DNA of 64,000 bases from a virus (IMGVR_UViG_3300029705_000019), one strand, 5' to 3'. Numbered from the stretch's first letter, positions 1,117 through 33,653 are shown. Notes: generated by a model from the letters alone, not told the origin. Numbers and translations are program-made.

Positions 1117-2121
1117 TTAGAATGTGTCATAGTTCATTGAATCAGGTGTTGTACTTTCAATCTGATTAGTTACTTCTTGCTGAACGATGTTCTGTACATC
1201 CTGATTTGTTACAAATGTTTGCTGAGCTGACTCCTGAGTAACATATGTGCTTTCAGCGACCTCATGTGTAAGATAGGTACTATTTGCAACTTCTTCTGTA
1301 ATGAAATTTTCAGTTACATTAGTTACAAATTCTTCAGTCACATAGTTTTTCTGCTCAAGAGATTCATTAGTAACATATGTAGTAGAAAGATGCTCCTCAG
1401 TAACATAATTCTGTTGTGTTAAATATTCGTTTGTAACAAAATTACTCACGTCCGGAATATCACTTTTCTTTGCATACTCAGAAAGATCAACTTCACCACC
1501 TAACTGTGCGTTTGCCACTGCTTCTGCAATAGCTGCATCAGTTTCAGCTTTGTTATAAACATCAGCTGCATTTGCTTTGTTATCAACAGCGGTGCTAAGA
1601 TCCTTGATTGCATCGCTATTATCAGCAATGGCAGTATTAAGGGCATCAATTGATGCTTCACTTCTATCTGCCTCTTCAATAACAGCTTCTAACTGAGTCT
1701 GAATATCTTCTTGAGTACTTTTTAACGAGTCAATCGTTTCATCTAATTCTGAAACAGTCGACTCAACTTCATCTAATCTATTATTTATCTCTGTGAGGTC
1801 AACACTTGGGGCAGAGCCACCACCGTTAACACTCTGTTCATCAAAGATTGTGTAAAGATATACATCATTGAGATTAGTTACTTGAACTAATGTGCCAGCT
1901 GTATACATCCAACCAGGCTCTTTGAAGTACTTATCAGTAGTAAAATCATTAGTTATTCTGTAAATATAATTAATGTTTTGAAAAGATGGAGAGGGTAAAT
2001 CTTCAAAAGAAATTGCACCACCGAACTTCAGATTTTCACTATCTCGTTCGTCAATGTAATCTTTGATTAAGCCATCATAGTAGACTAGACCATCCCAATC
2101 AACATATTTCAACTTTGCCAT
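1117..2121 (-). CDS. Putative fibre-type virion protein (coiled coil plus YVTxE repeats)
   Basis: N-terminal KYVDWDGLVYYDGLIKDY motif, central coiled coil, tandem (Y/F)VTxE repeats. Ends in SMNYDTF, like the neighbouring gene. Confidence 0.6.
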   Translation of the reverse strand: MAKLKYVDWDGLVYYDGLIKDYIDERDSENLKFGGAISFEDLPSPSFQNINYIYRITNDFTTDKYFKEPGWMYTAGTLVQVTNLNDVYLYTIFDEQSVNGGGSAPSVDLTEINNRLDEVESTVSELDETIDSLKSTQEDIQTQLEAVIEEADRSEASIDALNTAIADNSDAIKDLSTAVDNKANAADVYNKAETDAAIAEAVANAQLGGEVDLSEYAKKSDIPDVSNFVTNEYLTQQNYVTEEHLSTTYVTNESLEQKNYVTEEFVTNVTENFITEEVANSTYLTHEVAESTYVTQESAQQTFVTNQDVQNIVQQEVTNQIESTTPDSMNYDTF

Positions 2122-2159
2122 ATTAGTTTGTCTCTCCCTATGAATTAATTATATATAAT

Positions 2160-4568
2160 TCATTGAATTGGTGCATTACCACCATCAATAAATTCAACAG
2201 CCAACATCTGTTCAAGCTGATTAATCAGCTGTGAAGTTTTCTCTTCTACAAGTGAATCAACATAAGTTTTTGATACGGCTGCATTTGTTGTAAATCTTGT
2301 TGTTGATTCTGATAATATAATATTACCAACAGCATCTCTTTGAACAACAGCATTTTCAACTGGTTCTGTTGAAACTGATAATGATCCAAGTGTATCCCCT
2401 GTTTGTGTAAATACTTGTGCTGTCTTAGTTGTCGGTAATACAACTACATATTCATCAGTTGTTTTTAATTCATCAATCTGTGATTGTAGATTTTCATCGA
2501 TTAGTTTTAATTCATCAATTGATCTATTTATTGATTCATCCGCCAAAGTATGATTGGATGATGTTTTACTTAATTCATCAATTTCAACTTGAAGTCTATC
2601 AATCTCAAGTTGTTTAGAATTTATTTTATCATCAACAACTTGTATTTGATTTTTAACAGATTCAACATCTAAATTAGTTTTATCAACTTTATCATTTACG
2701 ACAACAACAGATTCTTTTACTTCATCAATGTCATTTTGAACACCAACAATGAGTAAGTTAATATAAAGAATACTTTGTTCAATATCGTAAACATCTTGTT
2801 GAATATCAATTATTTTTGTTGTCTGAGCACTAAGTGCATCTTCAATTTTTTCAAGTCTCGAATTGATTAATGTAATCGCCGCAACACGTCTGTTGAATTC
2901 ATCACTTATTAATGTGGATAGGATGTCATCGCGTTTAATTGAATCATTTTCAACATCTTTAATATCAGCTGCTAAACGATTTCTAACTTCAACGAGAGTA
3001 TCTCTTAAATCAACACATTCTTGGAATAATGTTTTTTCAACTGAAATGGCACGATCACGTTCAGCATCCATTGAGGATTGTATGCTACTGCATTGTGTAT
3101 CTCTTTGATTAATTTCAGTTGTTAATCTATTATTAAGAGTAGTTACATCAGAGCGGATGTCAGAAACAACTTGTGAGTGAGTATTATTCAATCGAACAAC
3201 ATCATTTGTTAACTCTCTTAATCTATTTACTTCCTCAACTAAAGCATTACATTGTTCTCTAATTTCAACATCTACAGCTTCTGATCTATTGATTTCAAGA
3301 TTAAGTTTACCTGATAATGTTTCAATTGAGTTGTTTGTTGTAGCAACATCATTCTTAATAGATTGAATATTGATACTGTTTTCTGTTGTTTGTTTTGTTA
3401 AATTGTCAATAGACTTTTTTAACTTTTCAGATGAAGATGTGAACTGGTCAAGCTCTTCAAGTTTTGCTAATTGACTATTAATAGTACTGATTTGAGTCTG
3501 TACTTCTTGATAGCCATTTGATACATCATCAGCAAGATTTACAAAATCATCACTTAATTCATCAACATCATCACGAACAGAACTAATACTAGTATTAAAC
3601 TCTTGTACGCTTGAATTAATGCTGTTAACTGATGTTCTTAAATTTGATACATCAGCTGTATTTTTCTGAACAGTCTTTGTAACATCACTAACTGATTGAT
3701 TAATTGAGCTAATATTAGTTTTTATATCAGCTACTTCAGTTTGTAAAACAATATCTGCAGAAGCACGTGTATTCTTTTCTGATTCTAAATCATTGCAGAG
3801 CTGCGCATCAGCTTTTTCACGAGCTGTTGTTTCTTCTGCAAGTTTTTCACTGAGAGCTTTATCAATATTGTTAGCGATATTCGATTCAACAACAGTTATC
3901 TTATTTTCAAGATTTTGTTCAGATGTCTGAGCTCGTTGAGATTCATCAACAATCTGTTTTCTAATATCAGATTCAGCAACTAGTGCTCTTTGAATTTCAT
4001 CATTAAGTTTTTGCTGAATTAGCTGTTCAAATTCAAGAGTTTTAATTGATAAATCATTCAATAGATTCAAACTGTTTGTTGCTTCGGATTTTCTTGCAAT
4101 GATCTCTTTAGTAAGATCTTCGATTATTTTCTTTTCAGCTGCAACAGCTCGTTTAATTTCTTTATCAAGCTCTGTTTCAAGTTTTGTTTCAACATCTACT
4201 GTAAACTGATGTTCTTCGCTCAATTCGCGAACAAACTCGTTTTGAGCACGAACAAGATCTCGTGCAAGAATTTCAAGCTCAGCAAGAACATATTTTTTAT
4301 GTTTCGCTGTATCTTCAATTTCAGCATGAAGTTCTTGAGTTAACTCTTGAATCTTTGCATAGTTTCTTGCACCTTTATCTCCCGGGTATGCTTTGTGAGC
4401 AACTGTTCCAAGAGCTGAATCCCATCTTACTTCACCAGTGATAATTCTATTTTCATTATCAACATTAATAGTAAGTGATTCAGTGGTTCCACCAACATAT
4501 GTATTTTTTGACGTTGGTTTATTTAATTTACCAAAAAGATATTCATTGTTATTTGAGGCCATACTCAA
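2160..4568 (-). CDS. Long coiled-coil structural protein (fibre/whisker-like)
   Basis: 802 aa, heptad-rich, repeated ExxRAxxAE motifs, AYPGDKG near the N-terminus and an IDGG tail; sits in a structural operon. Confidence 0.55.
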   Translation of the reverse strand: MSMASNNNEYLFGKLNKPTSKNTYVGGTTESLTINVDNENRIITGEVRWDSALGTVAHKAYPGDKGARNYAKIQELTQELHAEIEDTAKHKKYVLAELEILARDLVRAQNEFVRELSEEHQFTVDVETKLETELDKEIKRAVAAEKKIIEDLTKEIIARKSEATNSLNLLNDLSIKTLEFEQLIQQKLNDEIQRALVAESDIRKQIVDESQRAQTSEQNLENKITVVESNIANNIDKALSEKLAEETTAREKADAQLCNDLESEKNTRASADIVLQTEVADIKTNISSINQSVSDVTKTVQKNTADVSNLRTSVNSINSSVQEFNTSISSVRDDVDELSDDFVNLADDVSNGYQEVQTQISTINSQLAKLEELDQFTSSSEKLKKSIDNLTKQTTENSINIQSIKNDVATTNNSIETLSGKLNLEINRSEAVDVEIREQCNALVEEVNRLRELTNDVVRLNNTHSQVVSDIRSDVTTLNNRLTTEINQRDTQCSSIQSSMDAERDRAISVEKTLFQECVDLRDTLVEVRNRLAADIKDVENDSIKRDDILSTLISDEFNRRVAAITLINSRLEKIEDALSAQTTKIIDIQQDVYDIEQSILYINLLIVGVQNDIDEVKESVVVVNDKVDKTNLDVESVKNQIQVVDDKINSKQLEIDRLQVEIDELSKTSSNHTLADESINRSIDELKLIDENLQSQIDELKTTDEYVVVLPTTKTAQVFTQTGDTLGSLSVSTEPVENAVVQRDAVGNIILSESTTRFTTNAAVSKTYVDSLVEEKTSQLINQLEQMLAVEFIDGGNAPIQ

Positions 4569-12668: not shown

Positions 12669-12710
12669 ATATATACATCGAAGAAAGTATGATGCTCGAT
12701 GTATAATTAA
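12669..12710. promoter_or_regulatory. Back-to-back CGATGTATA motifs of the divergent cassette pair A/B
   Basis: ATATACATCGA...TCGATGTATAAT inverted pair; the motif sits about 40-50 nt upstream of nearly every cassette start. Confidence 0.65.
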
Positions 12711-14424: not shown

Positions 14425-14982
14425 TTATGTTTGCTCATCAAGAGTTCGAGCTGTATTTATGAAAATCTGTTTTAGTTGACCATCAATATTAAATCTATCC
14501 GCATTTGTTTCAATGCTCTTCAATAGATTACCATCATTGTGTCTCAAAGTTGAAGCTTTCCAGTCACAAAACATTTCAATAATATCAATTAACGTCATAT
14601 CATTTATTCCATTAACAAAATGTTCAGGATGATGACGATTGTTTGCATAATGATGTTCTAATGCTGGTTTCATATCTTCAAGATTTTGATTATACTCTTC
14701 ACTACCGTAACTACATACACTTAACTTCGGTGTATATTCTGCAAATATTTCAACCTCAGGAGTTTCTAACTTTGATGCGTCATGATACACACCTCTGAGA
14801 TCTAATCTGTCAATCATGAATCTAATATACTTACGTACATTCTCAATATGTTTTTGTGTTTCAACTTGGCATTCAGCAACAGTTAAAACTGGTATCTCTT
14901 CCTGCTCAAGTTGTTGAATTGATGCAGAGTCACTCAAAAGTGGAGCAAGTGTTTTATCTGTGTGTTGTGAGTTAATTTCCAT
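14425..14982 (-). CDS. DUF5662-like HD-type protein
   Basis: HDASKL...LEHHYANNRHHPEHF...MTLIDIIEMFCDWKA motifs match this common phage family, from memory. Confidence 0.65.
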   Translation of the reverse strand: MEINSQHTDKTLAPLLSDSASIQQLEQEEIPVLTVAECQVETQKHIENVRKYIRFMIDRLDLRGVYHDASKLETPEVEIFAEYTPKLSVCSYGSEEYNQNLEDMKPALEHHYANNRHHPEHFVNGINDMTLIDIIEMFCDWKASTLRHNDGNLLKSIETNADRFNIDGQLKQIFINTARTLDEQT

Positions 14983-15459: not shown

Positions 15460-15828
15460 TCAGCAATCAATATGAATTGAATTCTTCTTTATCTTCTCTT
15501 TGTTTTCAACTTTTGACTTGTTAAAGTAACATGCCAAAATTGTTGCAAATGCTGCCCAAGCTGGAGTTATAATAGCTGTTAAATATGGAAGTGCTCCAGA
15601 AAACTTTTCAGTAATCGCAAGCTCGGCAAGATTAACAACTTTAAATGATAATAGCATAACCATCGGGTAAACAATTAAAATGTTTGCAAGAACAATCCAT
15701 TTAGAAAATTCAAACTTTTTCTTTTCAGGTTGTTCTTTCTTTTGTTGCGATTTTTGTTGATTAGACCCTTGCCTCATTTGTGGTGTCCGTTGTGCTTGAG
15801 GTCGGGATCTATTTGGTTGATTGTTCAT
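15460..15828 (-). CDS. Two-TM membrane protein of the lysis cassette (holin-like)
   Basis: KFEFSKWIV...YFNKSKVEN with two hydrophobic helices; overlaps the endolysin stop. Confidence 0.5.
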   Translation of the reverse strand: MNNQPNRSRPQAQRTPQMRQGSNQQKSQQKKEQPEKKKFEFSKWIVLANILIVYPMVMLLSFKVVNLAELAITEKFSGALPYLTAIITPAWAAFATILACYFNKSKVENKEKIKKNSIHIDC

Positions 15829-16499
15829 TGGAGTGTACCCAATGCTCTGTAGATGAAGACGAGCATTTGTTCTCTAGTACAGTTGTCACGCAATTTATAA
15901 TTGCCATGTTCATCTCCGTACAATATACCGTTAGCGACTGCCCATTCAACAGCTTCACGAGCCCAATCAGCCGGTTCATTGTCAAACTCAGCTGTTGAAT
16001 TATCAACGATTTCTTTATCATAGTTGTTCATTGGTATAGTCTCCTCTCCAATAAGATATGGAAGTGGATCAATCGGAATATCATTGTATTCAAGCTGGAA
16101 ATGTAGATGCGCACCAGTTGAATAACCTGTAGAACCCATATAACCAAGTTGTTCACCAGCTGTAACCTGTTGACCAACTTCAACACAAATACTTCCATAT
16201 TTCATGTGATAGTATTCTGTTGTAAATCCATTACCATGATCAATTACAACATAGTTACCTCTTGATTGAGATTTTGAGAATCCTGTTACAGTGTCAACAA
16301 CCTTTGTAACAACTCCATCCCAAGCTGCACCAATTCCAGATAGTGCGCTCCATCCGAGCCAACAAGTAAGGTCAATACCCTTGTGTGCACCATTACCTTG
16401 ACCTGTTACTGGATCAACTCTGTAACCGAACGGAGAAGTCACTAACAATGTTGAACCTTCGGTCATAATAGGTAATACAGATTCAATTGTTGAAGCCAT
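15825..16499 (-). CDS. Endolysin: M23 peptidase plus C-terminal SLH-like domain
   Basis: HKGID, YYHM and STGAHLHF M23 motifs; WAREAVEWAVANGILYG...TREQMLVFIYR SLH motif. Confidence 0.85.
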   Translation of the reverse strand: MASTIESVLPIMTEGSTLLVTSPFGYRVDPVTGQGNGAHKGIDLTCWLGWSALSGIGAAWDGVVTKVVDTVTGFSKSQSRGNYVVIDHGNGFTTEYYHMKYGSICVEVGQQVTAGEQLGYMGSTGYSTGAHLHFQLEYNDIPIDPLPYLIGEETIPMNNYDKEIVDNSTAEFDNEPADWAREAVEWAVANGILYGDEHGNYKLRDNCTREQMLVFIYRALGTLQ

Positions 16500-20715: not shown

Positions 20716-21078
20716 TCATTCTAGTTCGTTCTCTACAACAACAAGTTTATCTTCATTTTTATACTCAGGTATGTCGGCTAGATGATAGATTACATTCTTT
20801 ATTTTTCCATCATGATATTGGTATTCACGTTTCAAGTAACCTGATTCCTCAAGCTGATTTAATGCACTTCTAATTGAAGTAACACCTTCCTTACGATTTT
20901 TAGCGATTAGTTCAGCTGTAAAATACCAATCATCTGGTTGTCTCCACATATACAACCATAATCCAAGACTTTTGAACGACAACGAAGGATCATCCACAAT
21001 ACTATTATCAAGCTGAGTATAATTTCTATTATAATGTTTTTGTGTCTTTGCCATGTTGTTTCTCCAGGTTAAGTTCAT
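20716..21078 (-). CDS. Helix-turn-helix protein resembling the N-terminus of phage replication initiators
   Basis: NYTQLDNSIVDDPSLSFKSLGLWLYMWRQPDDW...SIRSALNQLEESGYL winged-HTH pattern. Confidence 0.65.
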   Translation of the reverse strand: MNLTWRNNMAKTQKHYNRNYTQLDNSIVDDPSLSFKSLGLWLYMWRQPDDWYFTAELIAKNRKEGVTSIRSALNQLEESGYLKREYQYHDGKIKNVIYHLADIPEYKNEDKLVVVENELE

Positions 21079-21265
21079 TCTTATATTGAGTCATTAATTC
21101 ATCAACTTTTGGCGTGTGCTCAAAATAGAAAACAAGTTTTGTTTCATTTATGAAATCTTTGTGCGGTGCAATTCTTCTTAATTTGCAATCACGTGAAAGT
21201 AGAAAATTTGCAAGTTTACGACTCATTATAGCCATATCCTTGTTCATTAGAGCACAGTCCTCCAT
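21029..21265 (-). CDS. Small conserved phage protein (DUF5659-like)
   Basis: SRKLANFLL...PHK...VFYFE pattern. Early promoter at about 21300-21330. Confidence 0.45.
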   Translation of the reverse strand: MEDCALMNKDMAIMSRKLANFLLSRDCKLRRIAPHKDFINETKLVFYFEHTPKVDELMTQYKNELNLEKQHGKDTKTL

Positions 21266-21388
21266 TAGTATTACATTCTATAGTAAGTTATACAATTGTT
21301 ATTATAATGTAAATACTAAGAATCTTCAATACATTAAAATAATAAAGGCTGTTAGTTTAGTAACAGCCTTTATTGTCTATTTTACTGA

Positions 21389-21664
21389 TTACGGATTGAG
21401 TATTACTTTATCCGAAAAGTACTGAGCGTTATCGTTATAGTTCCAGCATTCTCTACTAGTCATAATAAATTCAATAACTTCTACTGCATCAACTTCATTT
21501 ACCGTAGGAGTTACAGGATCAGTTTCATCCGGATTTACAGGGTTAATTAACGTTTCCTCATTATTTGTAATGTCACTGCTTTCATTGTTAACATCGATTG
21601 TTACACAACCCGCTAAAGACATCATCATGACGAGTGCAATAATCATGGCCAATAAATTTTTCAT
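21389..21664 (-). CDS. Predicted lipoprotein
   Basis: MKNLLAMIIALVMMMSLAGC signal peptide with a lipobox. Confidence 0.6.
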   Translation of the reverse strand: MKNLLAMIIALVMMMSLAGCVTIDVNNESSDITNNEETLINPVNPDETDPVTPTVNEVDAVEVIEFIMTSRECWNYNDNAQYFSDKVILNP

Positions 21665-21815
21665 CTTTTATTTTCCTCCAAAATTGTATTTTGTTGATAT
21701 TCAGCACAACCTGCACAATTAGTTGTGCAAGGTGCAAGCATTAGGGTATATAAATTATTTAACGAAGTATATTCGCCTTTATTTGCCTTCGTTTCCTCCA
21801 CAGATGTGGATGGTT

Positions 21816-22118
21816 TTACTTTGTAAAATCATATATTGGAATGTAAAGAGTTTGTCCAGGATAAATGAGCGAGGTACATTCGGATCTAGTTTGAATATCT
21901 TTGATGACATATGTATTATCAATGTGGTTCCAACCATTTGAAAGACTGCCAAGGTACCACAAGGAATCACCTTCATCAACTTTTACAGTGAAATAATCAA
22001 CTGGCATTGGTCTAAGCTCAATATCACCAGCTTCAACTTTATTAATGAAAACAAGACCGCTAATACAAATAGTTGAGATAAGAATGAGAACTGATACCAT
22101 TATGTAAAATCTTTTCAT
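21816..22118 (-). CDS. Membrane-anchored LysM protein (YneA-like architecture)
   Basis: N-terminal TM segment, then VKVDEGDSLWYL...LIYPGQTLYIP LysM motif. Confidence 0.7.
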   Translation of the reverse strand: MKRFYIMVSVLILISTICISGLVFINKVEAGDIELRPMPVDYFTVKVDEGDSLWYLGSLSNGWNHIDNTYVIKDIQTRSECTSLIYPGQTLYIPIYDFTK

Positions 22119-22209
22119 TTTTAATAACCTCTTCTTTCCTTTTCTACATATATATTATAATATAAAAAGCAGAGATAATCAACTATCTCTGCTTTTTACA
22201 ACTGTTATT

Positions 22210-23981
22210 TTATTCAGATATATTACCCTCATTTTCTATATTTTCCTTATAACCGTATTCACCAGGGCATGTTACATACAATTCATATCCTCTAAAATGT
22301 TCATTGGAAATGCTCAATTGATTTCTTTTTACAATGTACTTACTGATAGGTTCAAATCCGCCAACAACAAAAGGATAATCACCTTTGGTGTACATTATCC
22401 AAGTACATTCACCAGCTGCACGTTGATGTTTTCCAACATAAGTACGGTAAAACTTTTCAGGGTCAACATCAATGTTAAATTCATCTTTGATTCTTTTAGC
22501 TAAGAGAGTGACAGTTGAAGAGGCCATCAAGGACACACTCCTTTTGGATCTTTGTCTCTGATAAACCAGATCGTTTCGCAGTGTTTACATCTTACGATCC
22601 AGCTTCCCGATGTCGTGTCTTCTTGTTTGATTGTAACATCAGTTTTTCTTACATATGTATGACATCCTGTACAATATGTCCATGTGTCGTCAAATTCTTG
22701 TTCGATTCTCTCAAGATAAGATCTAAACATTTTCATCTTTTGTAAGAATTGCTCAGGATTGTCTATGTCAAACTCTTTACGAAAATCATCAAAGTAGATC
22801 ATGGTTTAGAATTCCTTTCCGCTGCGCAACGAGGACACAGAGTTCCATAGTTTTCATCCTCAACCCAATCTTTTGTTTCAGCTTTCAACTTCTTGATTCT
22901 ATCAGGAGAATACCAGCCTGAATAATTAGCAATAGCTAAACATTTGAGACATTTAACTTCACACCAGATAAGATTCTTCATAGATTACCTCACTATTCCA
23001 CGTTGTAGTACATTTCAGGATGAATAGCTCTTAAAACCGTTTGTCCAAAGAAATCATTTTCTAGCTTTACAACATAGTTAGCATATTCATCTTTGTAGTC
23101 TAAACATTCATGAACTGAAATACCCTCACCAATTCTTTTACCGATTGTGTCTTCACGGTGAAGAAGGATAAATACAGCATAACCGTTTAGATTTGATCCA
23201 CAATCTTTGTGAACTTGTGCAAGAGTTTTTCCGATTGGATCATACAAAAACATATCACATAGTCTCCTTCTTAACAAGAAGATAGTCAGTGTCAATATCT
23301 TCAATTTTAGGGCTACGGTTGATTGTATATTCAGTTTCTTTAAGTAATTCTTCGAGATGAGCAACATCAATTGCACAAGATCTGTAGGAAGGGCTACCTG
23401 CCGTTTTATAATTACATTCAATAAGTGCAATATCAAACGCTCCATTCATGACAGATGCACGACTTGCCCAGATATAGCCCTTACTGTGTCCATAATGTTC
23501 ATCTGCAAGTTGTTCACAACCGTAAGTGAAAATTCCTTCAATGTTAGTCTTCTTAACAAAGAGTCTGCTGTTACCGCTTACTTTCGACAAAACATCATCA
23601 CCGGAAACAAGTTCTTTGTCTCCGATAATATAAACAGCTTGACAAATTCCATCCCGAATACCATCGATTTTCAACATTGTTGCTTCCCTCCAACTTCTTT
23701 TTACAGTAATATTATAATATATTTTAACAGTTTAATCAACTATAAAATAAGCGGCATATTTCTATGCCGCTTATTTTTCTTATTTATTGTTTGAAAACTT
23801 GCCACGGGTATTTTAGGAATTCTATTGATGACTCCTCTTGTCTGGATGCAAGTACTGCATTTATCTTGATCTTCTTGTTTGTAAAACCAGTTACTTCTCC
23901 AAGAAGCAATTCAGCATATTTACCATCAGCTGCTACAACTTTGTCACCAATTTGTAATTCTTTTCCAACACAATCTAACAT
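22210..23981 (-). other. Block of small early hypothetical ORFs (22210-22536, 22527-22802, 22799-22981, about 22993-23250, 23255-23677, 23784-23981)
   Basis: Overlapping start/stop junctions, GGAG/GAGG SD sites and early promoters; several have CxxC motifs. Confidence 0.6.
23711..23742 (-). promoter_or_regulatory. Representative early sigma70/sigmaA-type promoter AGTTGA(T/A)-N~17-TATAAT
   Basis: The motif recurs about 15 times upstream of small ORF operons, e.g. near 9700, 22180, 37615, 40280, 44020, 45420, 47410, 49840, 53910, 57510, 58550, 58815, 61170 and 62560. Confidence 0.8.
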
Positions 23982-24675: not shown

Positions 24676-24934
24676 ATATAAATGAAACCTCACATTGATA
24701 AGTTAATATGTAAATGATATACAAGATAACTATTATCAGGCGAAAAATTACTATTAGATTACTCTCTAAAATCTTTCACAGACTTCTCTCTCTTCATCAA
24801 TATTAGATACTCCATCATTGATGATAAAATCTGATATGTGTTATTAACAAATTGTACTGTGTTATCATTTGAAGTATATAAGTCACGATGTATATATTTT
24901 TATATGATATAAAAATATAAGGAGATTATCTATC

Positions 24935-25567
24935 TTGAGTACTACAATTCGATTGTATCCAACTAATCACTATGCTTATACTTCAAGCAGTTCTGTCGCC
25001 AATGTTAACAACGCAACAGACTTATATGGTGATGGTTCAAGCTCAAGCGGTGTTGTTGCTACAGCACCATTGGGTTATGCAACATCGTTAGGATATACAT
25101 TTGATCTATCATCAATTCCGTCAACAGCAGTGTTTACTGATGTTGTATTCTATACTCTCTTTCAATGCCGTGGCAGTTTAGCTGATGTTGCAACAAATGA
25201 GTTCAATTCATCAACAGTTATGTTGTTACTTAATGATTTGGGGTTTGAATCTTATAACATTGATGCCATTCAACAAGGAAATTACAACCAATCTGAAGCT
25301 TATGAGACATATAGTAGGTCAGGACAAATTATTATAAATAAATCACTAAAATCTTATGTTGAAGAACTGGTTCTTGATGGCGTGAATATGCCAAGTATAT
25401 CAATTGAATACTTTATAGATGCAACATCAAGTTCAAATGCTGCTTCTGATTTACAGATGTATGTGAACACTTTGTATGTTGAAGTAACTTATGAAGATGC
25501 AACAGCTCCTGACTCTGACGCAGGTGGATTTATTTTCATCGATGGTGCTTGGTGCCCAATTAATTAA
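24935..25567 (+). CDS. Tagged variable protein C (C-terminal GGFIFIDGAWCPIN)
   Basis: AGGAG SD, TTG start, CACGATGTATAT upstream. Paralogous to A and B through the xVEVTYE strand before the tag. Confidence 0.7.
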   Translation: MSTTIRLYPTNHYAYTSSSSVANVNNATDLYGDGSSSSGVVATAPLGYATSLGYTFDLSSIPSTAVFTDVVFYTLFQCRGSLADVATNEFNSSTVMLLLNDLGFESYNIDAIQQGNYNQSEAYETYSRSGQIIINKSLKSYVEELVLDGVNMPSISIEYFIDATSSSNAASDLQMYVNTLYVEVTYEDATAPDSDAGGFIFIDGAWCPIN

Positions 25568-25647
25568 CATCTTTCAATAACTGTATTAATTTAATAGCAG
25601 TAAGAAAAACTTGCTGTGTAAAATACAACATTGAGGTGTGAATAATT

Positions 25648-25689
25648 ATGTGGATTTTCATCAATGGTGCATGGGTACAAATTGGTTAA
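25648..25689 (+). CDS. 13-aa minigene MWIFINGAWVQIG consisting only of the tag
   Basis: ATG TGG ATT TTC ATC AAT GGT GCA TGG GTA CAA ATT GGT TAA, with GAGGTG SD 9 nt upstream and a terminator directly downstream. Confidence 0.6.
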   Translation: MWIFINGAWVQIG

Positions 25690-25705
25690 TTATTTGTATC
25701 ACAAC

Positions 25706-25737
25706 AAAAAGCGCTGATTTTATTCAGCGCTTTTTTT
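25706..25737. terminator. Bidirectional intrinsic terminator
   Basis: AAAAA-GCGCTGA...TCAGCGC-TTTTTTT between convergent cassettes D and E; near-identical copy at 28435-28468. Confidence 0.8.
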
Positions 25738-25753
25738 ATTTATGAATTTTTAG

Positions 25754-26644
25754 TTACGCAAGCGGGAACCAGGCTCCATCAATTGACACATATCCATAAG
25801 GTTGTTTTCCAATATGATAAATATCAGTGTACACATATCCTGAGTATACGATGCCACTAGAGGAAGTTAGCTGAATTGCATTTCTTGCTCTAAACTGAAT
25901 CTTACCCTTGTCTACGTTAATCGTGTGGGAAAATATATAATTTGGAAGAGATGCAACACTATATGAACATCTTGTCCATGTTGATTGATCATAGCTGTAT
26001 TCAACTTCAGCAAATTTACTAGTTGCTACAATACTATTAAAACCGGTTGGTTGTGATATTGTGAAACTGATAGTAGTGTCTTTCTTAAGGTTTTCTGATG
26101 GATTAATGTCAACACGAAGGGGAGCTGGAACATTATCAGCAAAATTTTTGTTAAATGTAAATTTTACAGCATCATAACCAAGGCCTGTTGATTGTGCAGA
26201 AACTGTAGTTCTTCCATAACAACTATAATGTTGTGTTGTTAGTGAACTTGGAATGAGACCTGAGTTCCATAAAAGAAGAGTGTTTTCACCACTATTTAAT
26301 TTATTAGTAATTGTGTATGTTTGTGTGTAATAAATACTGTCAACTGCCCATGATTGAAGTGTTTCATACTGCCAAGTTGGAAAAACATTACTTCCCCATG
26401 TTATGACATAGTTTGAACTGTTTACAGTAACACCAGAAGAATACATTGTTCCATAAACAGTGTACTTTGGTTCTTTAATATGTGCTAAACCGTTGAAGAG
26501 CGTACCCTGAGAACCTGCCTTTGTTTCACATATCAAGGTATTCGGCGATTCATAGTAAATTGTATAATACAAGGGATAAACACTACCACCACTAGCAGGC
26601 ATGTTTTGAGTACATGTCCAGCTTAAAATTGCAATTCGAGCCAT
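25754..26644 (-). CDS. Tagged variable protein E (FN3/Ig-like C-domain; YGYVSIDGAWFPLA)
   Basis: Paralog of K (EVEYSYDQSTW / EVQYSYDGSTW; DKGKIQFRARN / DKGGIQFRARN). AATACATCGA upstream. Confidence 0.7.
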   Translation of the reverse strand: MARIAILSWTCTQNMPASGGSVYPLYYTIYYESPNTLICETKAGSQGTLFNGLAHIKEPKYTVYGTMYSSGVTVNSSNYVITWGSNVFPTWQYETLQSWAVDSIYYTQTYTITNKLNSGENTLLLWNSGLIPSSLTTQHYSCYGRTTVSAQSTGLGYDAVKFTFNKNFADNVPAPLRVDINPSENLKKDTTISFTISQPTGFNSIVATSKFAEVEYSYDQSTWTRCSYSVASLPNYIFSHTINVDKGKIQFRARNAIQLTSSSGIVYSGYVYTDIYHIGKQPYGYVSIDGAWFPLA

Positions 26645-26764
26645 AAGTTACTATAACTCCTTTTATTTCATAAAATTATTTTATAGTAATAAATACATCG
26701 ATAAATTAATGCAACAATAGGAATGATATATATATTATGTCATAATCAAGTTTTAAATATCTAT

Positions 26765-26806
26765 AAAAATAGTGCTGATTTTTAATTATAATCAGCACTA
26801 TTTTTT
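26765..26806. terminator. Bidirectional terminator
   Basis: AAAAATAGTGCTGATT...AATCAGCACTATTTTT hairpin. Confidence 0.75.
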
Positions 26807-26847
26807 ATTTACTTTTTACGGTGTGGTGTCAACACAAGAACTATTGT

Positions 26848-26976
26848 TTATGTACTATCTTGATCTGGTATTCTATACCATATACCATTATTATATACAT
26901 ATTCAGTGCTGTCTATCTCAAAGTTTGCAACTATACCTGCATATCCTGAGGCTGAACCACCTTCGCCATCTATCGA
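26848..26976 (-). pseudogene. Startless 3' remnant of a tagged gene (...STEYVYNNGIWYRIPDQDST*)
   Basis: Hand translation of the minus frame, closed upstream by TAA at 26977-26979; ends just before the hairpin at 26765-26806. Confidence 0.5.
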
Positions 26977-27139
26977 TTATGCGTTATCTCCAATACCAGA
27001 AAATGGATATACAAACGGTATTTATCTGTACATTTATGATTGCTATGTTGATGTTACGTATGAAGAAACTGAATCAACACCAATTCAGGATAATGGTGCA
27101 TATGTATTCATTGATGGTGTGTGGCAGCCACTGGGTTAA
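26906..27139 (+). pseudogene. 3' remnant of a C-like tagged gene (...CYVDVTYEE...GAYVFIDGVWQPLG*)
   Basis: Aligns with the C-terminal part of 24935-25567. No convincing SD or promoter motif; followed by a terminator. Confidence 0.6.
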
Positions 27140-27155
27140 ACAGATTAAAAATAGT

Positions 27156-27195
27156 AAATGCTCCCTATGATATTTCTATCATAAGGAGCATTTTT
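27156..27195 (+). terminator. Terminator after remnant G
   Basis: AAATGCTCC(C)TATGATA...TATCATAAGGAGCATTTTT hairpin. Confidence 0.7.
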
Positions 27196-27251
27196 ATAGT
27201 TACGATGTATAATATTCTATAATGAATTTTTATTACGGAGTGATAACATAG

Positions 27252-28421
27252 ATGGCATGTAGTGCAAAATGTAAAATTCTTGAAGCCACAGGCTCTATCG
27301 GTGGTAATTATACTACAATTATTATATCAAAAGGTACACTAACTTTATCCTCATCCACAAGTTATTCAGTGAATCCACAATTTGCCACTGACGCCGATGA
27401 TTACGATACATTTGTATCGTTAGGCACAAAAACTGTTACATCAAGTGGTGTTTCATGGACATTCACACCTCAATCAGGAAATGTTAACGGTATTAGATTT
27501 CGGGATTCCAGTGGTAACTTGATGACAGTGTCACTATATACGTCATCAACAAGACCACAACTACCTACATATATTACATATGGATACGCTGCAGGATCTT
27601 CAGGTTACTATGATAGCGACATTGTTTGGACTGAAACTGATATGACAGCAGGATCAGATAGTTCTACATACTTTCAATGTACATTTAATTACACAGTTCC
27701 ATATGAAGAGTGGGCTAACGCAACAATCAGATATGAAAACAACGGGACATTAACTGTTACAAATAGTATTGACGTATACCAATTACAAATTTATGTAAAT
27801 GGAGTACTTGTTGGTACACTTTCTGATGCAAATACAAGTTATACCGGTAAGTATGTTTCATATGATCCAATCAGTGTTCAGCTTTTGCTTTATAATTCTT
27901 CTACGTATTATCCTCTAAAAATCACTGGATATCCCGCAATGACTGCGGGAACAATGTTTTCATACTGTACGAGCGGTTCACCAATTTTTATTAAAAACAT
28001 ATGGCACGAGGAACCTATTCCTTATGTTCCGATGCTTGTTGCAATGAATCCATCCACTGATGTTTCTTGCGGAGATACTGTTTCCGTGTCTTGGTTAGCA
28101 TCTCATCCAACTTCGACAAATTCTCCTGTAACATATACACATACAGTTGAAGTGAGTGTTGATGAAGGAGAATATGTATCAATTCAAACAATTAATAGTT
28201 CTAATGGAAACAGTATTGAATATGTAATTCCTGATGATTGTTCGACAGTAAAATTTAGAGTTAGAAACAATGCTGCAAATATAAGCCTTATGGGTGTAAC
28301 AAGCGACTGGGCACGAAGCTCAGACTATAGAGAATCAAGCACATATTCAATACTAACAAATGTAGTACTTAATTCTTACGGTTATGTAAATATTGATGGT
28401 AGTTGGCACGCTTTATCATGA
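27252..28421 (+). CDS. Tagged variable protein H (FN3-like C-domain; YGYVNIDGSWHALS)
   Basis: GGAG SD and TACGATGTATAAT upstream. Paralog of I and J. Confidence 0.75.
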   Translation: MACSAKCKILEATGSIGGNYTTIIISKGTLTLSSSTSYSVNPQFATDADDYDTFVSLGTKTVTSSGVSWTFTPQSGNVNGIRFRDSSGNLMTVSLYTSSTRPQLPTYITYGYAAGSSGYYDSDIVWTETDMTAGSDSSTYFQCTFNYTVPYEEWANATIRYENNGTLTVTNSIDVYQLQIYVNGVLVGTLSDANTSYTGKYVSYDPISVQLLLYNSSTYYPLKITGYPAMTAGTMFSYCTSGSPIFIKNIWHEEPIPYVPMLVAMNPSTDVSCGDTVSVSWLASHPTSTNSPVTYTHTVEVSVDEGEYVSIQTINSSNGNSIEYVIPDDCSTVKFRVRNNAANISLMGVTSDWARSSDYRESSTYSILTNVVLNSYGYVNIDGSWHALS

Positions 28422-28434
28422 ATATCAAATAAAT

Positions 28435-28468
28435 AAAAAAAGCGCTGAATTTACTCAGCGCTTTTTTT
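28435..28468. terminator. Bidirectional terminator between H and I
   Basis: AAAAAAAGCGCTGA...TCAGCGCTTTTTTT. Confidence 0.8.
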
Positions 28469-28478
28469 ATTTATGTTT

Positions 28479-29723
28479 TTACATAACCGAGTGCCATTCT
28501 CCGTTAATATATACATACCCACACCCTTGTTCAGTTGATTCTGTATTACCTTCTGGATAGTATACTGCTGACTCTTTCCACGGAGAGGTATACTGATAAA
28601 TAACTGATCCATCTGTTGGTGCATTTGCATTGGTTGCCTTTACATAAGCTCTAAATTGTACACTGTAACATTGTTCAGGAATTTGATATGAATACATACC
28701 GTTATTCGCACTTGATGATTTTATATTAACATATTCAGCACCATCAACTTTTGCTTGAAGTTGAACTACAACATCTGTTGCATTTGGTGTACTAGTTGTC
28801 CATTCTAGATAATACTTTTCTCCGCATAAATAACTTGAGGATCCTGTTAATTTTAAGTTCAAAGAGTTTACTAAAGCACCACCAACAGAATTTCTATTTC
28901 TTCTCATCAATAGGACACTGTTAGTTGTGTCTGATACATATCCTCCCCACGTGTTTGAACTGTAACTCAGTTCAAAAACACTGTTTGAATCAAGTCCTAC
29001 ATCACGTCGACGTAAACTGATTACTACGTCAGAATCTCCAACATTAAAAGAGCGTGAACTAATAGTGGGAGTATTGAGTGTCACCGGAGAAGAGACACTT
29101 GTACCACTTACATAAACATCAAGTGTGCAATAGTCGGATACATAATATGTCTCACCATTTTCGGTACCTGAAAATTTACCAGAAATAAAGACATTGCTAC
29201 CTTGTCTACTTAAAGAGAGTTTACCATAGACCCACTCAGTTCCATAATATGTACCTCTAACAATGATCTCAGCACTTGGAGCAATTGTATTACTAAAGGT
29301 GTAACCAGCAAACCTTCCGCTTCCCTCAGTCCATGTGAATGCATATGCGCCAACTCCTCCATAAGGACTCATTGTGACACCATGAACTATTGACCCATTA
29401 TTATTGGTCGATGTAATTGTACTCATCTCACCAATGATTGAGTTTAATGGGTAAGAACCATTTGCAAAACTAATTTGTTGTGTTGCGTTGTCTTTGATAT
29501 AATTGCTAAAGTCCCATGTTGTTCCTGAACTTGTAATGGTTTGAAGGCCAAGATTATAGGTTGATGTTCCATTATCATATTGAGGATTCAACGAGGCAGT
29601 ACCTGAATCAATGAAGACAGTTAACTTTCCTGAATCAATTATAATGCGGTAATTCGTGGTGATGCTATTTGCAGAATAGCTCAATGAATAGTCAAGAATT
29701 TTTGAACATTTTGCATAAACCAT
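28479..29723 (-). CDS. Tagged variable protein I (FN3-like C-domain; CGYVYINGEWHSVM)
   Basis: Shares N-terminal strands (IISKGTLTL / IIDSGKLTV; TSSGVSWTF / TSSGTTWDF) and the C-domain with H. ATATACATCG upstream. Confidence 0.75.
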   Translation of the reverse strand: MVYAKCSKILDYSLSYSANSITTNYRIIIDSGKLTVFIDSGTASLNPQYDNGTSTYNLGLQTITSSGTTWDFSNYIKDNATQQISFANGSYPLNSIIGEMSTITSTNNNGSIVHGVTMSPYGGVGAYAFTWTEGSGRFAGYTFSNTIAPSAEIIVRGTYYGTEWVYGKLSLSRQGSNVFISGKFSGTENGETYYVSDYCTLDVYVSGTSVSSPVTLNTPTISSRSFNVGDSDVVISLRRRDVGLDSNSVFELSYSSNTWGGYVSDTTNSVLLMRRNRNSVGGALVNSLNLKLTGSSSYLCGEKYYLEWTTSTPNATDVVVQLQAKVDGAEYVNIKSSSANNGMYSYQIPEQCYSVQFRAYVKATNANAPTDGSVIYQYTSPWKESAVYYPEGNTESTEQGCGYVYINGEWHSVM

Positions 29724-29899
29724 AAAGTTGCATACCTCCTGTGATAAAAAAATTTCATTACAGAATAATATACATCGTGCTGCATAAAAATATACCTACG
29801 AGATAGTTGATTTCAAATAAGTCGATGTATGATTAACTATAAAAGTTAATTATATTTATGGAGAAATCTTAAATAATAACAATATAATAAATTCGATAA

Positions 29900-29932
29900 T
29901 AAAAAAGCTCTGCATATAAATGCAGAGCTTTT
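29900..29932. terminator. Bidirectional terminator
   Basis: AAAAAAGCTCTGCAT...ATGCAGAGCTTTT; a related stem (AAAGCTCTGA...TCAGAGCTTT) lies at about 31858-31892. Confidence 0.75.
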
Positions 29933-29965
29933 ATTGTTTATTAATGTTAGATACCAGGGAGTAAC

Positions 29966-30034
29966 TTATTCAGTTTGTTTAACATACCGTTTATCATCTT
30001 GTACCAAGATATCAGGGTAAGGTATCAAAGTGGT
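29966..30034 (-). pseudogene. In-frame vestige after the stop of gene J (TTLIPYPDILVQDDKRYVKQTE*)
   Basis: Same frame as J directly after its TGA; resembles the C-terminus of gene M (AYPDNGIHTDGKWYVKQT). Confidence 0.5.
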
Positions 30035-30769
30035 TCAGCTTAGTAATGGAAACCAAACACCATCTATACTGACGTATCCATATGAGTCCTTGATAAAACT
30101 AAATGTATCAGTATATATAGTTGGGGAAATACCTGTTAGCCCAGAAGGGGTGTATGCTTCTGCGTATACACTAAATTTTACTGTTGAGCATTCTGGGATA
30201 TTAAAGCCGTAAGATGTTGATGTTGTCGAACTTGTAATTGGAATATAATCTGCACCATCAATACTAACTTTTGGGTAATATCGTACGCTTCCCTCTGACG
30301 CAGTTGATGTTGACCATGATAATATTACATTGTCCCCAATATTAAATACCTCTGGTGTCACACTGATTGATTCTGGTGTTGTAACAGTTGGACTTACAGC
30401 AGTCCATGTTAATGTAGTTGTAGATCCACCATGACCTTCCGCTAACGTAGATGTAACACCATCACCGAGTTCCATCATATGCATTGAAGAACCACTGACA
30501 GTCATTGTGTTGGTTCCGACTACTTCTTTGTAACTCCCTACAATCCCAGTACCCATCAAGCCTGTATATGAACCGTTGGAGTCAGGGAGTGATACATATG
30601 TTGTTGTTCCGTTTGTTGTGACGGTAAGATCTATGGTTGCGCCATCGTTGATATATTGATCGTATAATGAATTAACTGAGAGCTTGATATATCCATTTGC
30701 AATAGTAAATGTTACACAGTAGTAGCCCTCTGATGGACTAGATTTTTCTGAAGTAAATTGACATAACAT
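30035..30769 (-). CDS. Tagged variable protein J (FN3-like C-domain; YGYVSIDGVWFPLLS)
   Basis: C-domain VSIDGADYIPI...IPECSTVKF matches H and I. Variant motif ATATACTTCG upstream. Confidence 0.7.
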   Translation of the reverse strand: MLCQFTSEKSSPSEGYYCVTFTIANGYIKLSVNSLYDQYINDGATIDLTVTTNGTTTYVSLPDSNGSYTGLMGTGIVGSYKEVVGTNTMTVSGSSMHMMELGDGVTSTLAEGHGGSTTTLTWTAVSPTVTTPESISVTPEVFNIGDNVILSWSTSTASEGSVRYYPKVSIDGADYIPITSSTTSTSYGFNIPECSTVKFSVYAEAYTPSGLTGISPTIYTDTFSFIKDSYGYVSIDGVWFPLLS

Positions 30770-30855
30770 TTTTATAGTGCCTACTTTCTATAATGATATA
30801 CTTCTATATTATTATATACTTCGTAGCACAATAAAAATAAAGGGCTAATATAATA

Positions 30856-31794
30856 TTAGCCCTTTAATGGATTCCAAGTACCATCAATGAAAACATATCC
30901 AGGAGGAAGAACTCCAATAGGAATTTCATCGGTGTAGATATAGTCAGAATAGAATGTTTCACGTGTAGTTGTACCACCAACTACTCCAGTAGTATATGAA
31001 ATAATTACATAGTTTCTTGCACGGAACTGAATACCACCTTTATCAATATTAACAGTTGTATAATATCGACGTATACTTGGTAGAAGTGCAACATATAAAC
31101 TACAATTTGACCATGTAGACCCATCATAGCTATATTGGACTTCGTTTCCATATGAGGTTAATCCTGAATTCCAGTTTGGTGTTTGTGATAGTTCTACATC
31201 AATTGTTGTTCCATTTTCAACTTTTGTTGTTGAATATGTTGTATCAATTCTTAACGGTGGTAAACATTTTCCAACCTGTGAACCAACAAATGTGAAGTTT
31301 GTTTCATTATAACCAGTAATTGAACTAGTGCTATCTGTGATTGATACTCCAAGTGCACGTTGAGGGAAGTCCCATACAGCACCCTTACTAACAAGACCCT
31401 CCCATGTAGTAAAAAATGTAACAGTGTTTGTTCCACTTGAAATACCATCTGTTATTGTGTATGTTTGTGTATTAGCAGTTGCATGCCAACTTTGATACGT
31501 TTGATAGGACAAAGGACTATACAATGGATTTAATGATTCATAGTTTTTATGAGCAGTTATCACATATGCTTTATTATTAACAAGAATACCGGACAGGACT
31601 CTTGTTTCGTGATTCTCATATGTTGGTACACCCTGGAAACCGTAAGCACTTCCTGACCAGGTTGATGTAATTTCAAGGGTATTTGGATATGTGTAATATA
31701 GTTCACAAGTAACATATCCAAGTCCACCTCCTGAAGCTGTATTTCCTTGTTGTACATCTAGTATCCAACCCGCTAACAATATTTTTTCAGCCAT
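30856..31794 (-). CDS. Tagged variable protein K (start revised to MAEKILL; PGYVFIDGTWNPLKG)
   Basis: Paralog of E. GAGG SD upstream of the ATG at 31794; ATATACATCAA upstream. Confidence 0.7.
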   Translation of the reverse strand: MAEKILLAGWILDVQQGNTASGGGLGYVTCELYYTYPNTLEITSTWSGSAYGFQGVPTYENHETRVLSGILVNNKAYVITAHKNYESLNPLYSPLSYQTYQSWHATANTQTYTITDGISSGTNTVTFFTTWEGLVSKGAVWDFPQRALGVSITDSTSSITGYNETNFTFVGSQVGKCLPPLRIDTTYSTTKVENGTTIDVELSQTPNWNSGLTSYGNEVQYSYDGSTWSNCSLYVALLPSIRRYYTTVNIDKGGIQFRARNYVIISYTTGVVGGTTTRETFYSDYIYTDEIPIGVLPPGYVFIDGTWNPLKG

Positions 31795-31907
31795 AAACAA
31801 TTTTATCCTCATCATTTAATCTATATAAAAGTATATACATCAAAGGAGATAAAAATAAAAAGCTCTGAGCCTAAATGATTCAGAGCTTTTTATTTTTATC
31901 TATTTCA

Positions 31908-32858
31908 TTATTCAATCGGTGTCCAAATTCCATCAATCATTATATAACCGTAACATGATGAGGATTCTTCTACAATTTCTTCCATTTCCACTATTACAAT
32001 GTCACTTGTTGCTGTACAATATGCAGCACTGTCATCGAATTCTTGAGCGTAAGCGTCATGAAACTCAGCAACATAGTACACTGATGCACCAATGGTATCT
32101 TCAGGCATATAATCAGTGAAGAAATAGCCATACCAAAAACCATCTGTTGATGTATCAAGTATTTCAGCTGTATATGATGATTCTCCTATTTGTTTCATAT
32201 ATCTTGTTATCTTTGTAACATATATTAATTCTTCATCAGCTTCGCTTGCCCATAACTTAATTTCTGCTGATTTACCTGAGTACAGTGTGGGTACATCAAA
32301 CGCAGCCGACGGCGGATTATTTAATGGTAAATTTGTTAATCTAAAATTTACATTATAAAAAGACTGTGCATACGAGTTTGATGTTAATATTCTATATATG
32401 TTATTACTTGTACTAGGAATGTAATCTATTGAGGGATTCTCAGACGCTTCGCTACCATCTGCATAGTACCAACTTGCTGATATATCAACATAACTAGAAA
32501 ATGATCCTGGAGTCCTATCAAAAAAGTGATAAGAAAAATTTTCAGAAGAGATATACGTTCCGCTATCAATAGTTATTGTTTCTGTTTCATAATTATATAC
32601 GTTTGGTCCACAAATATATTTGATAGTTATTTCTATATTTCGTTCGACGTCATCTGTGTTATATACTGGTGTACGATTGAAATTAAAGTTAAAATTCATG
32701 AAATGACTATCAGAACCTGAAGCTGTTTTTTCTACATTGAAATCACATTCAACATATGAATAATTATCTGTATCATTTGATCTGAATATTAATCTAGAAC
32801 TATCATCCTTTACATATGGAACACTAGCACCACTGTTATACGAAGTAACATTCGACAT
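31908..32858 (-). CDS. Tagged variable protein L (YGYIMIDGIWTPIE)
   Basis: GGAG SD, ATATACATCG at about 32904, Ig-like C-terminal region, own terminator. Confidence 0.7.
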   Translation of the reverse strand: MSNVTSYNSGASVPYVKDDSSRLIFRSNDTDNYSYVECDFNVEKTASGSDSHFMNFNFNFNRTPVYNTDDVERNIEITIKYICGPNVYNYETETITIDSGTYISSENFSYHFFDRTPGSFSSYVDISASWYYADGSEASENPSIDYIPSTSNNIYRILTSNSYAQSFYNVNFRLTNLPLNNPPSAAFDVPTLYSGKSAEIKLWASEADEELIYVTKITRYMKQIGESSYTAEILDTSTDGFWYGYFFTDYMPEDTIGASVYYVAEFHDAYAQEFDDSAAYCTATSDIVIVEMEEIVEESSSCYGYIMIDGIWTPIE

Positions 32859-33028
32859 ATATTAAAATCTCCATCTATCTATAAAAAATTTAATTATAGA
32901 TAAATATACATCGTTCTATAAACTATAAGCTATCAAGAATGTATTCTTTTTATCTATTTGTATAATCTTAACTAACACTCGATGTATAAAAAACTATATA
33001 AATTAGATTAAAATTGAGGTAAAACAAT

Positions 33029-33616
33029 ATGTCAAATGGTGGTTATGTTTATGTAAGTTCTGATGCAGCATGGCATCCTCTATACCCAAGTGGACCAACA
33101 ATTGTGTGGGATGTGTATAATGTTGATACTCTTTATTATGATGCATCAAGTGTGCAGTCATACAGTGCAATATTCGATCTCGATGATAATAGATATGTTA
33201 TTGTAGACAGGCTTGTTTATTCTCCATTTATAGCTTCTGACGGAACTCCATATGCATATGAGATTCCTAACTATGATACTTTATCCAATTATGAAATGAC
33301 GAGAGATGAACTTTTTAATTCCTACTCCAAAGGAACTCTTTCTCCAGGTTATGTATTACGACGCACTGAATATTCTAATGGTGATGGTGAGTATTTAGAA
33401 GAAGGATTCTACTGGCAATTACTTGGATGGTTTGTTTCTACTACTTCATCAGGTTTTGGATCTAGTAAGAGATTGTATGTCAATTACTATGCGTATTCTT
33501 CAACTCCAACAAATGTGAAAGGTTCATGGATACAAGCTATTGAATCAACAAATTCAAGTGCCTATCCTGATAACGGTATACACACTGATGGTAAGTGGTA
33601 TGTGAAACAAACATAA
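33029..33616 (+). CDS. Tagged variable protein M (N-terminal GGYVYVSSDAAWHPL; C-terminal AYPDNG...WYVKQT)
   Basis: GAGGT SD, CTCGATGTATAA upstream, terminator at about 33617-33653. Confidence 0.7.
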   Translation: MSNGGYVYVSSDAAWHPLYPSGPTIVWDVYNVDTLYYDASSVQSYSAIFDLDDNRYVIVDRLVYSPFIASDGTPYAYEIPNYDTLSNYEMTRDELFNSYSKGTLSPGYVLRRTEYSNGDGEYLEEGFYWQLLGWFVSTTSSGFGSSKRLYVNYYAYSSTPTNVKGSWIQAIESTNSSAYPDNGIHTDGKWYVKQT

Positions 33617-33653
33617 AAATAAGCTTCGCGCTTAAATGTGCGAAGCTTATTTT
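33617..33653. terminator. Bidirectional terminator closing the cassette array
   Basis: AAATAAGCTTCGC...GCGAAGCTTATTT. Confidence 0.75.

Follow-up and report, generated by a model that had tools for sequence, protein, structure and literature searches.

We analysed a 64,000-nucleotide stretch of the genome of an uncultured gut phage (IMGVR_UViG_3300029705_000019; 205,166 bp in full), referred to in the following as the window, and found that ten intact genes in two loci, at 24.9-33.6 kb and 11.6-13.3 kb, share a 12-residue peptide tag. These genes, designated A, B, C, E, H, I, J, K, L and M, are accompanied by at least three remnants, and are called cassettes here because each carries its own promoter box and terminator. 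We put the chances at about even that the tag serves trimer assembly as a minimal hairpin of the foldon type, carried by a recently expanded and decaying family of late fibre, adhesin or decoration proteins. Foldon-type clamps at the C-termini of phage fibres are already known. The novelty lies in a bare 12-residue version that is all that at least ten self-contained units, with FN3 or other sandwiches as bodies, have in common, and in the signs of rapid turnover.

The tag has the consensus [GA][YFW][VI]x[IV][DN]GxWx[PAS][LIV]. It lies 2-4 residues from the stop codon in B, C, E, H, I, J, K and L and in the remnant G, is internal in A, where it bridges a B/C-type and an M-type domain, and is N-terminal in M, with a two-residue insertion. 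Translation of the open reading frames (ORFs) bore out the initial annotation, in which C, E, H, I, J, K and L ended in the tag, M started with it and A and B carried it as well. A six-frame regular-expression search of the entire 205-kb genome found the tag confined to these places. The hidden Markov model (HMM) that had been proposed as a check gave a clear separation: 11 sites, all in the two loci of this genome, scored 22-25.5 bits, and the next best score in a 612-kb six-frame translation of this phage and two relatives was 7.7 bits. Mean pairwise identity within the tag is 55%, and most of the bodies are mutually unalignable. The tag codons vary at synonymous sites, which argues for selection on the peptide, not on DNA or a recombination site.

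The residues are laid out as a hairpin: strand 1 carries an aromatic residue and a beta-branched one, strand 2 carries Trp and Pro-Leu, and [DN]-G forms the turn between them. Both faces carry conserved hydrophobics (Y/W/P on one, V/I/L on the other). The tag is preceded by about eight residues loosely rich in Pro, Gly and Asp, and the preceding 8-10 residues are not conserved. Degenerate DNA scans of IMG/VR and the JGI metagenomes with the strict tag gave no matches beyond this phage; looser scans gave isolated hairpins, many of them unrelated, and no second array was among the matches listed. One family of small proteins with PPPPPRV...PGP-YVWIDGYWYP-x-G-x-Y-x-W-H-x-GYW repeats (loci L098, L111, L131, L136 and others) is unrelated and matched the loose pattern by chance. 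Other than five proteins of the phage itself, none of 1.8 billion representative proteins covered the tag part of a profile of the FN3-like domain plus tag.

The closest known relative of the tag was the foldon of T4 fibritin, AYVRKDGEWVFL, taken from the T4 record. When the ten tags were aligned by hhalign with the T4 foldon and five foldon-like modules from a second phage (L010, described below), the match reached a probability of 96.2% with an E-value of 2.6e-9 and 21 columns in register; with the T4 foldon alone, the values were 62.7% and 7e-5. As controls, the choline-binding repeats of Cpl-1 gave 9% over 8 columns, and a triple-hairpin module found in related phages gave 4%. The foldon hairpin core Y-V-x-x-D-G-x-W-x-x-L is present in the tags and can be aligned in register, with Y, V, [DN]G, W and L at equal hairpin positions. 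Like the foldon, the tag is a short hairpin in which an aromatic residue and Val mark the first strand, [DN]-G the turn and Trp the second strand; its end is hydrophobic, and it usually stands at the extreme C-terminus, the T4 foldon doing so on a phage fibre protein. It differs in comprising about 12 of the 27 residues, the hairpin only, in being attached to beta-sandwich bodies instead of a coiled coil, and in occurring on at least ten paralogs in one genome, whereas T4 has one whisker gene.

Hairpins of this kind also occur in two fibre proteins. A degenerate DNA scan of IMG/VR for Y-V-x-I-[DN]-G-x-W-x-P returned, amid chance hits, several fibre-type phage proteins with single or tandem hairpins of this kind. 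Among them was L010 (IMG/VR 3300041016_000422, 1933-3525(-)), a collagen-repeat fibre. Its five modules of the type D-A-P-x-D-G-x-P-Y-I-R-x-N-x-x-W-E-P-L stand in tandem and match Pfam Fibritin_C with 28.6 bits, where the cut-off is 21. The tag shares with these modules the core Y-[IV]-x-[IL]-[ND]-x-x-W-x-P-L, including the W-x-P-L ending, but is present once per protein on unrelated globular bodies, whereas L010 has five in tandem in one long trimeric fibre. The second protein, P0188, is encoded by the phage itself outside the window, at 170433-172442 of its genome (L040:4434-6443). This coiled-coil fibre of 669 residues is Mtd_N-like at its N-terminus and contains, internally, a foldon-like insert, LPETAQKGDVYV...EFVFDGSEWVEFG, which shows a ...GDVYV... 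pattern like that of the tag. Fibritins of the JS98 type have two foldon motifs, one of them internal (PMC3797505).

From these comparisons, we propose that three chains would contribute one hairpin each to a small three-fold knot, which would nucleate and register trimer assembly as the foldon does in T4 fibritin. A trimer knot would explain why the tag can be C-terminal, interdomain (in A) or N-terminal (in M). The foldon-type reading accounts for the sequence similarity, for the independence of the tag from position and for the presence of a similar hairpin in the coiled-coil fibre of the same phage. Since trimerisation explains neither how ten unrelated N-termini would be attached nor why both hairpin faces are conserved, the assembled knot may double as a surface for attachment to the particle.

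Several observations weigh against this proposal. The isolated foldon hairpin is monomeric, and the bare hairpin may therefore not suffice for a trimer. The full 27-residue foldon unit was not found in the cassettes: there is no C-terminal 3-10 turn and the N-terminal arm segment is unconserved. Pfam Fibritin_C (PF07921) was unmatched by any cassette protein even at E <= 1. The pattern that retrieved L010 was derived from the tag, so that one of its five modules matches by construction. Because conserved hydrophobics occupy both faces, something beyond a three-fold core must cover the hairpin; moreover, FN3/Ig-like bodies need no trimer, and a tag that served for trimerisation only would leave unexplained how ten unrelated N-termini attach to the virion. 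The AlphaFold2 (AF2) model of A, built from a five-row alignment, draws the tag as a hairpin at low confidence, but with a mean predicted local distance difference test score (pLDDT) of 47 it was too poor to place the packing of the hairpin and unusable for a fold search. A three-copy complex prediction for the FN3-plus-tag fragment of H returned a score of 0.00 and was used as evidence neither way.

The initial annotation had interpreted the tag as a docking plug, that is, an address peptide that inserts non-covalently into one acceptor on the capsid, neck or baseplate and displays interchangeable heads, trimeric or not. The part of this claim that stood is the conserved, portable peptide of beta-hairpin type on divergent beta-rich proteins. 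The tag is the sole element common to unrelated bodies, all units share an exclusive promoter box, the conservation on both hairpin faces suggests a partner surface, and in sets of phage receptor-binding proteins the conserved module is usually the virion anchor. On the other hand, the analysis turned up no acceptor, the motif closest to the tag in sequence is one for self-association (the foldon is a trimerisation element and folding nucleus, not a docking plug), and 12 residues would be very small for a sole anchor, known anchors usually being N-terminal domains of 100 residues or more. We therefore consider pure docking doubtful, although it deserves a serious hearing.

The docking interpretation also finds an analogy in phages of the same group. 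Related large phages were found through the capsid protein, and the closest, G001 (IMG/VR 3300022753_000036; 204 kb), whose capsid protein is 81% identical, shows synteny with the window. In G001, three proteins (21599-23023, 72424-74250 and 74261-75730), found with profile A6, have another module at their C-termini, made of three 13-residue hairpins in tandem (...YIDNGTTLEPY.xYIDNGTSWDxY.xYVDNGTSWD...). Two of the three genes lie in a hypervariable block between a giant virion protein and the portal gene. This block, at 65.3-75.7 kb in G001 and 180.2-186.7 kb in the present genome, has no ORFs in common between the two phages and is likely a host-range module. The triple-hairpin module is 60-80% identical on at least 60 proteins (P0127, P0129-P0187) with very different bodies, mostly of Listeria-Bacteroides repeats (Flg_new). 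On one 155-kb contig, a triple-hairpin gene follows Peptidase_G2 and PTR-type tail-fibre genes at the end of the cluster. A homology between C or A and the N-terminal domain of P0127 was considered and dropped, as the BLASTP match was not significant.

An AF2 model of the module from a 59-row alignment showed, with high confidence (pLDDT 87.7), three hairpins in succession. Searches of the PDB by fold and by sequence found no match to it, and there was none in Pfam or NCBIfam. More distant relatives (capsid protein 55-63% identical) had neither module at the thresholds used. Like the tag, the triple-hairpin module is a short, conserved, hairpin-based C-terminus on highly variable bodies; unlike the tag, it has three tandem hairpins with a longer D-N-G-T-S turn, and no homology between the two was detectable by hhalign, the only method by which they were compared. 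The 4% match to the tag makes it an analogy at most for docking, and with 0.3% against the foldon, the module appears from its sequence to be analogous to the tag and not of the same family. By this analogy, short conserved C-terminal hairpin handles on variable bodies would seem to recur in this phage group. A broader scheme would unite the two functions: the 12-residue foldon-type hairpin would be a universal assembly-and-attachment handle, and any beta-sandwich binder that gained it, terminally or between domains, would be trimerised and held in the same virion socket, possibly as mixed trimers, the repertoire being renewed by unit birth and death and the triple-hairpin module being a convergent solution. 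This we regard as unlikely.

Small proteins ending in ...LPxAGTxGRIFFKKI or ...GQLFFLKVQE adjoin triple-hairpin genes in three independent places (G001 21026-21562 and 71889-72347; L091 11394-11648) and may be a partner or adaptor. When the present genome (G000) was searched for small proteins whose C-terminus is of the GRIFFKK type, none was found.

The bodies of the cassette proteins are consistent with binding proteins made in the cytoplasm. Between 42 and 51% of their residues are S, T, Y, G or N, against a background of 31%, and there are few charged residues, a composition typical of cytoplasmically made phage fibre and receptor-binding proteins. No signal peptide and no membrane or hydrophobic segment was found in any of them. 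E, K, H, I and J have a domain of about 100 residues in common. In an exhaustive hmmsearch, a profile of this domain (A2) matched multi-FN3 proteins over profile positions of about 10-110, and Pfam fn3 overlies the matched regions of P0025, P0037, P0081 and P0101. In these five cassettes, the FN3-like C-terminal domain that had been noticed earlier was confirmed as real by sequence profile, even though the cassette proteins themselves fall below Pfam fn3. Pfam gave no family at E <= 1 for any cassette protein, and Pfam, PHROGs and NCBIfam together gave nothing above noise apart from one PHROG, of unknown function, that matched J in its FN3 part; the bodies of A/B/C, L and M had no detectable family. 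Look-alikes in the ESM Atlas, which are leads only, were CBM96 for C (0.87), Phage_tail_C for M (0.77) and, for H, Ig/PKD-like structure rows below a TM of 0.35. The products are most likely beta-rich proteins such as occur in phage fibres, adhesins and decoration proteins, with bodies that comprise FN3-like and other Ig-/CBM-like sandwiches. Megablast and tblastn searches of 50,697 phage records found no match to the cassettes, and word-index searches with E and M returned only the phage itself.

By blastp, E and K are clear paralogs (36% identity, E-value 5e-49), as are H and I (2e-19) and, more distantly, H and J and I and J (1e-10 to 1e-11). A is related to C, and C to G. The proposed paralog sets E/K and H/I/J and the A-C relationship hold, but the place of B in an A/B/C set is weak (7e-4).

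Comparable proteins are known from other phages. In sets of multiple receptor-binding proteins (CBA120 TSP1-4, G7C and phiK64-1), the shared anchor is an N-terminal domain, at least about 100 residues long, and T4 Hoc, an Ig-domain decoration protein, is anchored by a C-terminal capsid-binding domain. The cassettes resemble the former in combining several divergent binding-type proteins with one conserved module in a single phage. The FN3-like cassettes resemble Hoc-type proteins in having Ig/FN3-type domains, which in Hoc are displayed on the particle. The genes of both known systems are usually in operons, whereas the cassettes are individually promoted and terminated and occur in mixed orientation.

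The promoter boxes provided information on the timing of expression. The exact 9-mer CGATGTATA has seven copies in the 205-kb genome, all 43-52 nt upstream of the start codon of a cassette (A, B, C, H, I, L and M); E, J and K have versions with one mismatch. At a distance of 41-56 nt, its TGTATA core also precedes the genes for the major capsid protein, a 2338-residue virion-type protein and an M23-SLH peptidase, as well as a few others; this is about double the background rate. The proposed match to a late promoter is therefore plausible for the core, which precedes the capsid gene, but not for the full 9-mer, which is restricted to the cassettes: the exact box is cassette-specific and not a general late promoter. 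Since the core is shared with capsid and other virion genes, late expression is plausible, and expression of the cassettes from this extended TGTATA box is, from the promoter sequence, probably late.

A role outside the virion was also considered, in which the proteins would act in or on the infected cell by binding wall or S-layer glycans, as decoys or in superinfection exclusion, the hairpin being a single repeat of wall-binding type or an oligomerisation tag. The spacing G-[YW]-V-x-x-[DN]-G-x-W equals that of choline-binding (CW_binding_1) repeats such as those of Cpl-1, LytA and the TcdA CROPs; a PDB search with the tag profile gave weak matches to chains with repeats of the TcdA CROP and cell-wall-binding types (summed E-value 0.011); the phage-encoded M23 peptidase with an SLH domain makes wall targeting part of the biology of this phage; and the array borders an early-type small-gene region, outside the head and tail operons. 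However, choline-binding repeats form tandem arrays of 20-residue units and act in tandem, whereas the tag is a single 12-residue copy per protein, no Pfam match to the family was found, the hhalign match to Cpl-1 was the low one given above, the proteins have no segment for export, and the capsid gene has the same promoter core. We consider this role quite improbable.

The tag might also be a signal for packaging or targeting, by which the proteins would enter the capsid or be placed on a scaffold, like the capsid-targeting sequence of T4 internal proteins, which is likewise a short peptide common to diverse proteins. Known capsid-targeting sequences, however, are N-terminal and cleaved by the prohead protease, whereas the tag stands at either end of a protein or inside it; the bodies are beta sandwiches like those of adhesins, where internal proteins are typically small and basic; and the similarity to the foldon points elsewhere. 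A packaging signal is thus very improbable indeed. Dockerin, a duplicated calcium-binding segment of about 60-70 residues, is no match for a tag of 12, and no Pfam Dockerin match was found. Pure docking, wall binding outside the virion and a packaging signal are all less likely than foldon-type trimer assembly; for the cassette proteins, we infer trimerisation, late timing, a virion location and a binding function.

Table 1. Cassettes and remnants in the window, with tags, promoter boxes and terminators.
Feature	Position	Strand	Organisation and tag	Promoter box and terminator
Gene A, 348 aa	11581..12627	-	B/C-type N-domain, internal tag at residues 172-183 GFTYINGIWHPL, M-type C-domain	CGATGTATA at 12672-12680(-)
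Gene B, 182 aa	12743..13291	+	C-terminal RWVMINGVWEPLVTM	CGATGTATA at 12697-12705(+); terminator downstream
Gene C, 210 aa	24935..25567	+	C-terminal GFIFIDGAWCPIN	Box at 24886-24894
13-codon minigene	25648..25689	+	Tag only, MWIFINGAWVQIG; GAGGTG Shine-Dalgarno	Bidirectional terminator 25706-25735 next
Gene E, 296 aa	25754..26644	-	N-domain, FN3-like domain, tag GYVSIDGAWFPLA	Box variant CGATGTATT at 26692-26700(-)
Remnant	about 26848..26976	-	C-terminal EYVYNNGIWYRIPDQDST; tag HMM 25.0 bits	No promoter; own terminator ~26768-26806
G, 77 aa	26906..27139	+	3' remnant of C-like gene, C-terminal AYVFIDGVWQPLG	No promoter box; terminator 27156-27193
Gene H, 389 aa	27252..28421	+	Beta-rich N-part, FN3-like domain, tag GYVNIDGSWHALS	Box 27203-27211; shared bidirectional terminator 28429-28474
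Gene I, 414 aa	28479..29723	-	H paralog, tag GYVYINGEWHSVM	Box 29769-29777(-)
Orphan box and terminator	29823..29932	+	No ORF between	Box CGATGTATG; minus-strand side of terminator also serves J
Gene J, 244 aa	30035..30769	-	FN3-like domain, tag GYVSIDGVWFPLLS	Box variant CGAAGTATA at 30815-30823(-)
Gene K, 319-aa ORF	30856..31815	-	E paralog, tag GYVFIDGTWNPLKG	Box variant TGATGTATA at 31834-31842(-)
Gene L, 316 aa	31908..32858	-	Orphan body, tag GYIMIDGIWTPIE	Box 32905-32913(-)
Gene M, 195 aa	33029..33616	+	N-terminal tag variant GYVYVSSDAAWHPL, then domain related to C-terminal half of A	Box 32980-32988(+); terminator 33616-33653

The layout of the array (Table 1) agrees with the earlier description of a promoter box and terminator for each gene: every gene is an independent promoter-gene-terminator unit. 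The region contains 14 terminator-like hairpins, compared with 4.0 +/- 2.3 in shuffled sequence. Four bidirectional terminators, at 28429-28474, 25706-25735, 29903-29932 and ~31850-31890, are near-copies of each other (AAAAAGCGCTGA...TCAGCGCTTTTT; AAAAGCTCTG...CAGAGCTTTT), and this near-identity fits duplication of whole units. Decay is visible as well. The minigene is probably the 3' stump of a lost cassette, and the orphan box and terminator at 29.8-29.9 kb look like an emptied or decayed slot. G is the last third of a C-like gene, residues 19-76 matching residues 153-209 of C at 36% identity (blastp E-value 1e-11). The start of K is probably the eighth codon of its ORF (MAEKILL..., as in E), giving a protein of 312 residues, the length also of the database entry P0007.

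The initial annotation had expected cassette content to vary among relatives, and so it does: G001 has nothing of the array, nor does it have the A/B pair. Metagenome contigs with gene E come from the same strain (99.99-100% identical), and no comparison was possible from them. The best explanation for the array is a lineage-specific birth-and-death expansion of complete promoter-gene-terminator units.

With regard to the genome as a whole, the genes for the portal, the prohead protease and the major capsid protein are located some 25-30 kb past the left end of the window. The M23-SLH peptidase gene, in which a Peptidase_M23 domain is fused to an SLH domain, is located at window 15825-16499(-); this fusion suggests a host with an SLH-anchored S-layer, probably a member of the Bacillota. 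The source samples of the phage are animal faeces metagenomes, and the sequencing runs listed for it were DNA runs from such metagenomes, with no RNA run among them. The window differs from the stored genome record by one base at position 14960.

Should the hairpin be enough by itself to trimerise beta-sandwich domains, no shorter natural clamp of the foldon type would be known, and protein engineering would gain a useful tag. For the phage, the array illustrates how a large gut phage builds and turns over a candidate host-binding repertoire without a diversity-generating retroelement or an invertase, through duplication and decay of complete expression units that have only a promoter box and a hairpin in common. 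The second, apparently undescribed hairpin module in sister phages suggests that short C-terminal handles on swappable adhesins may be general in this group.

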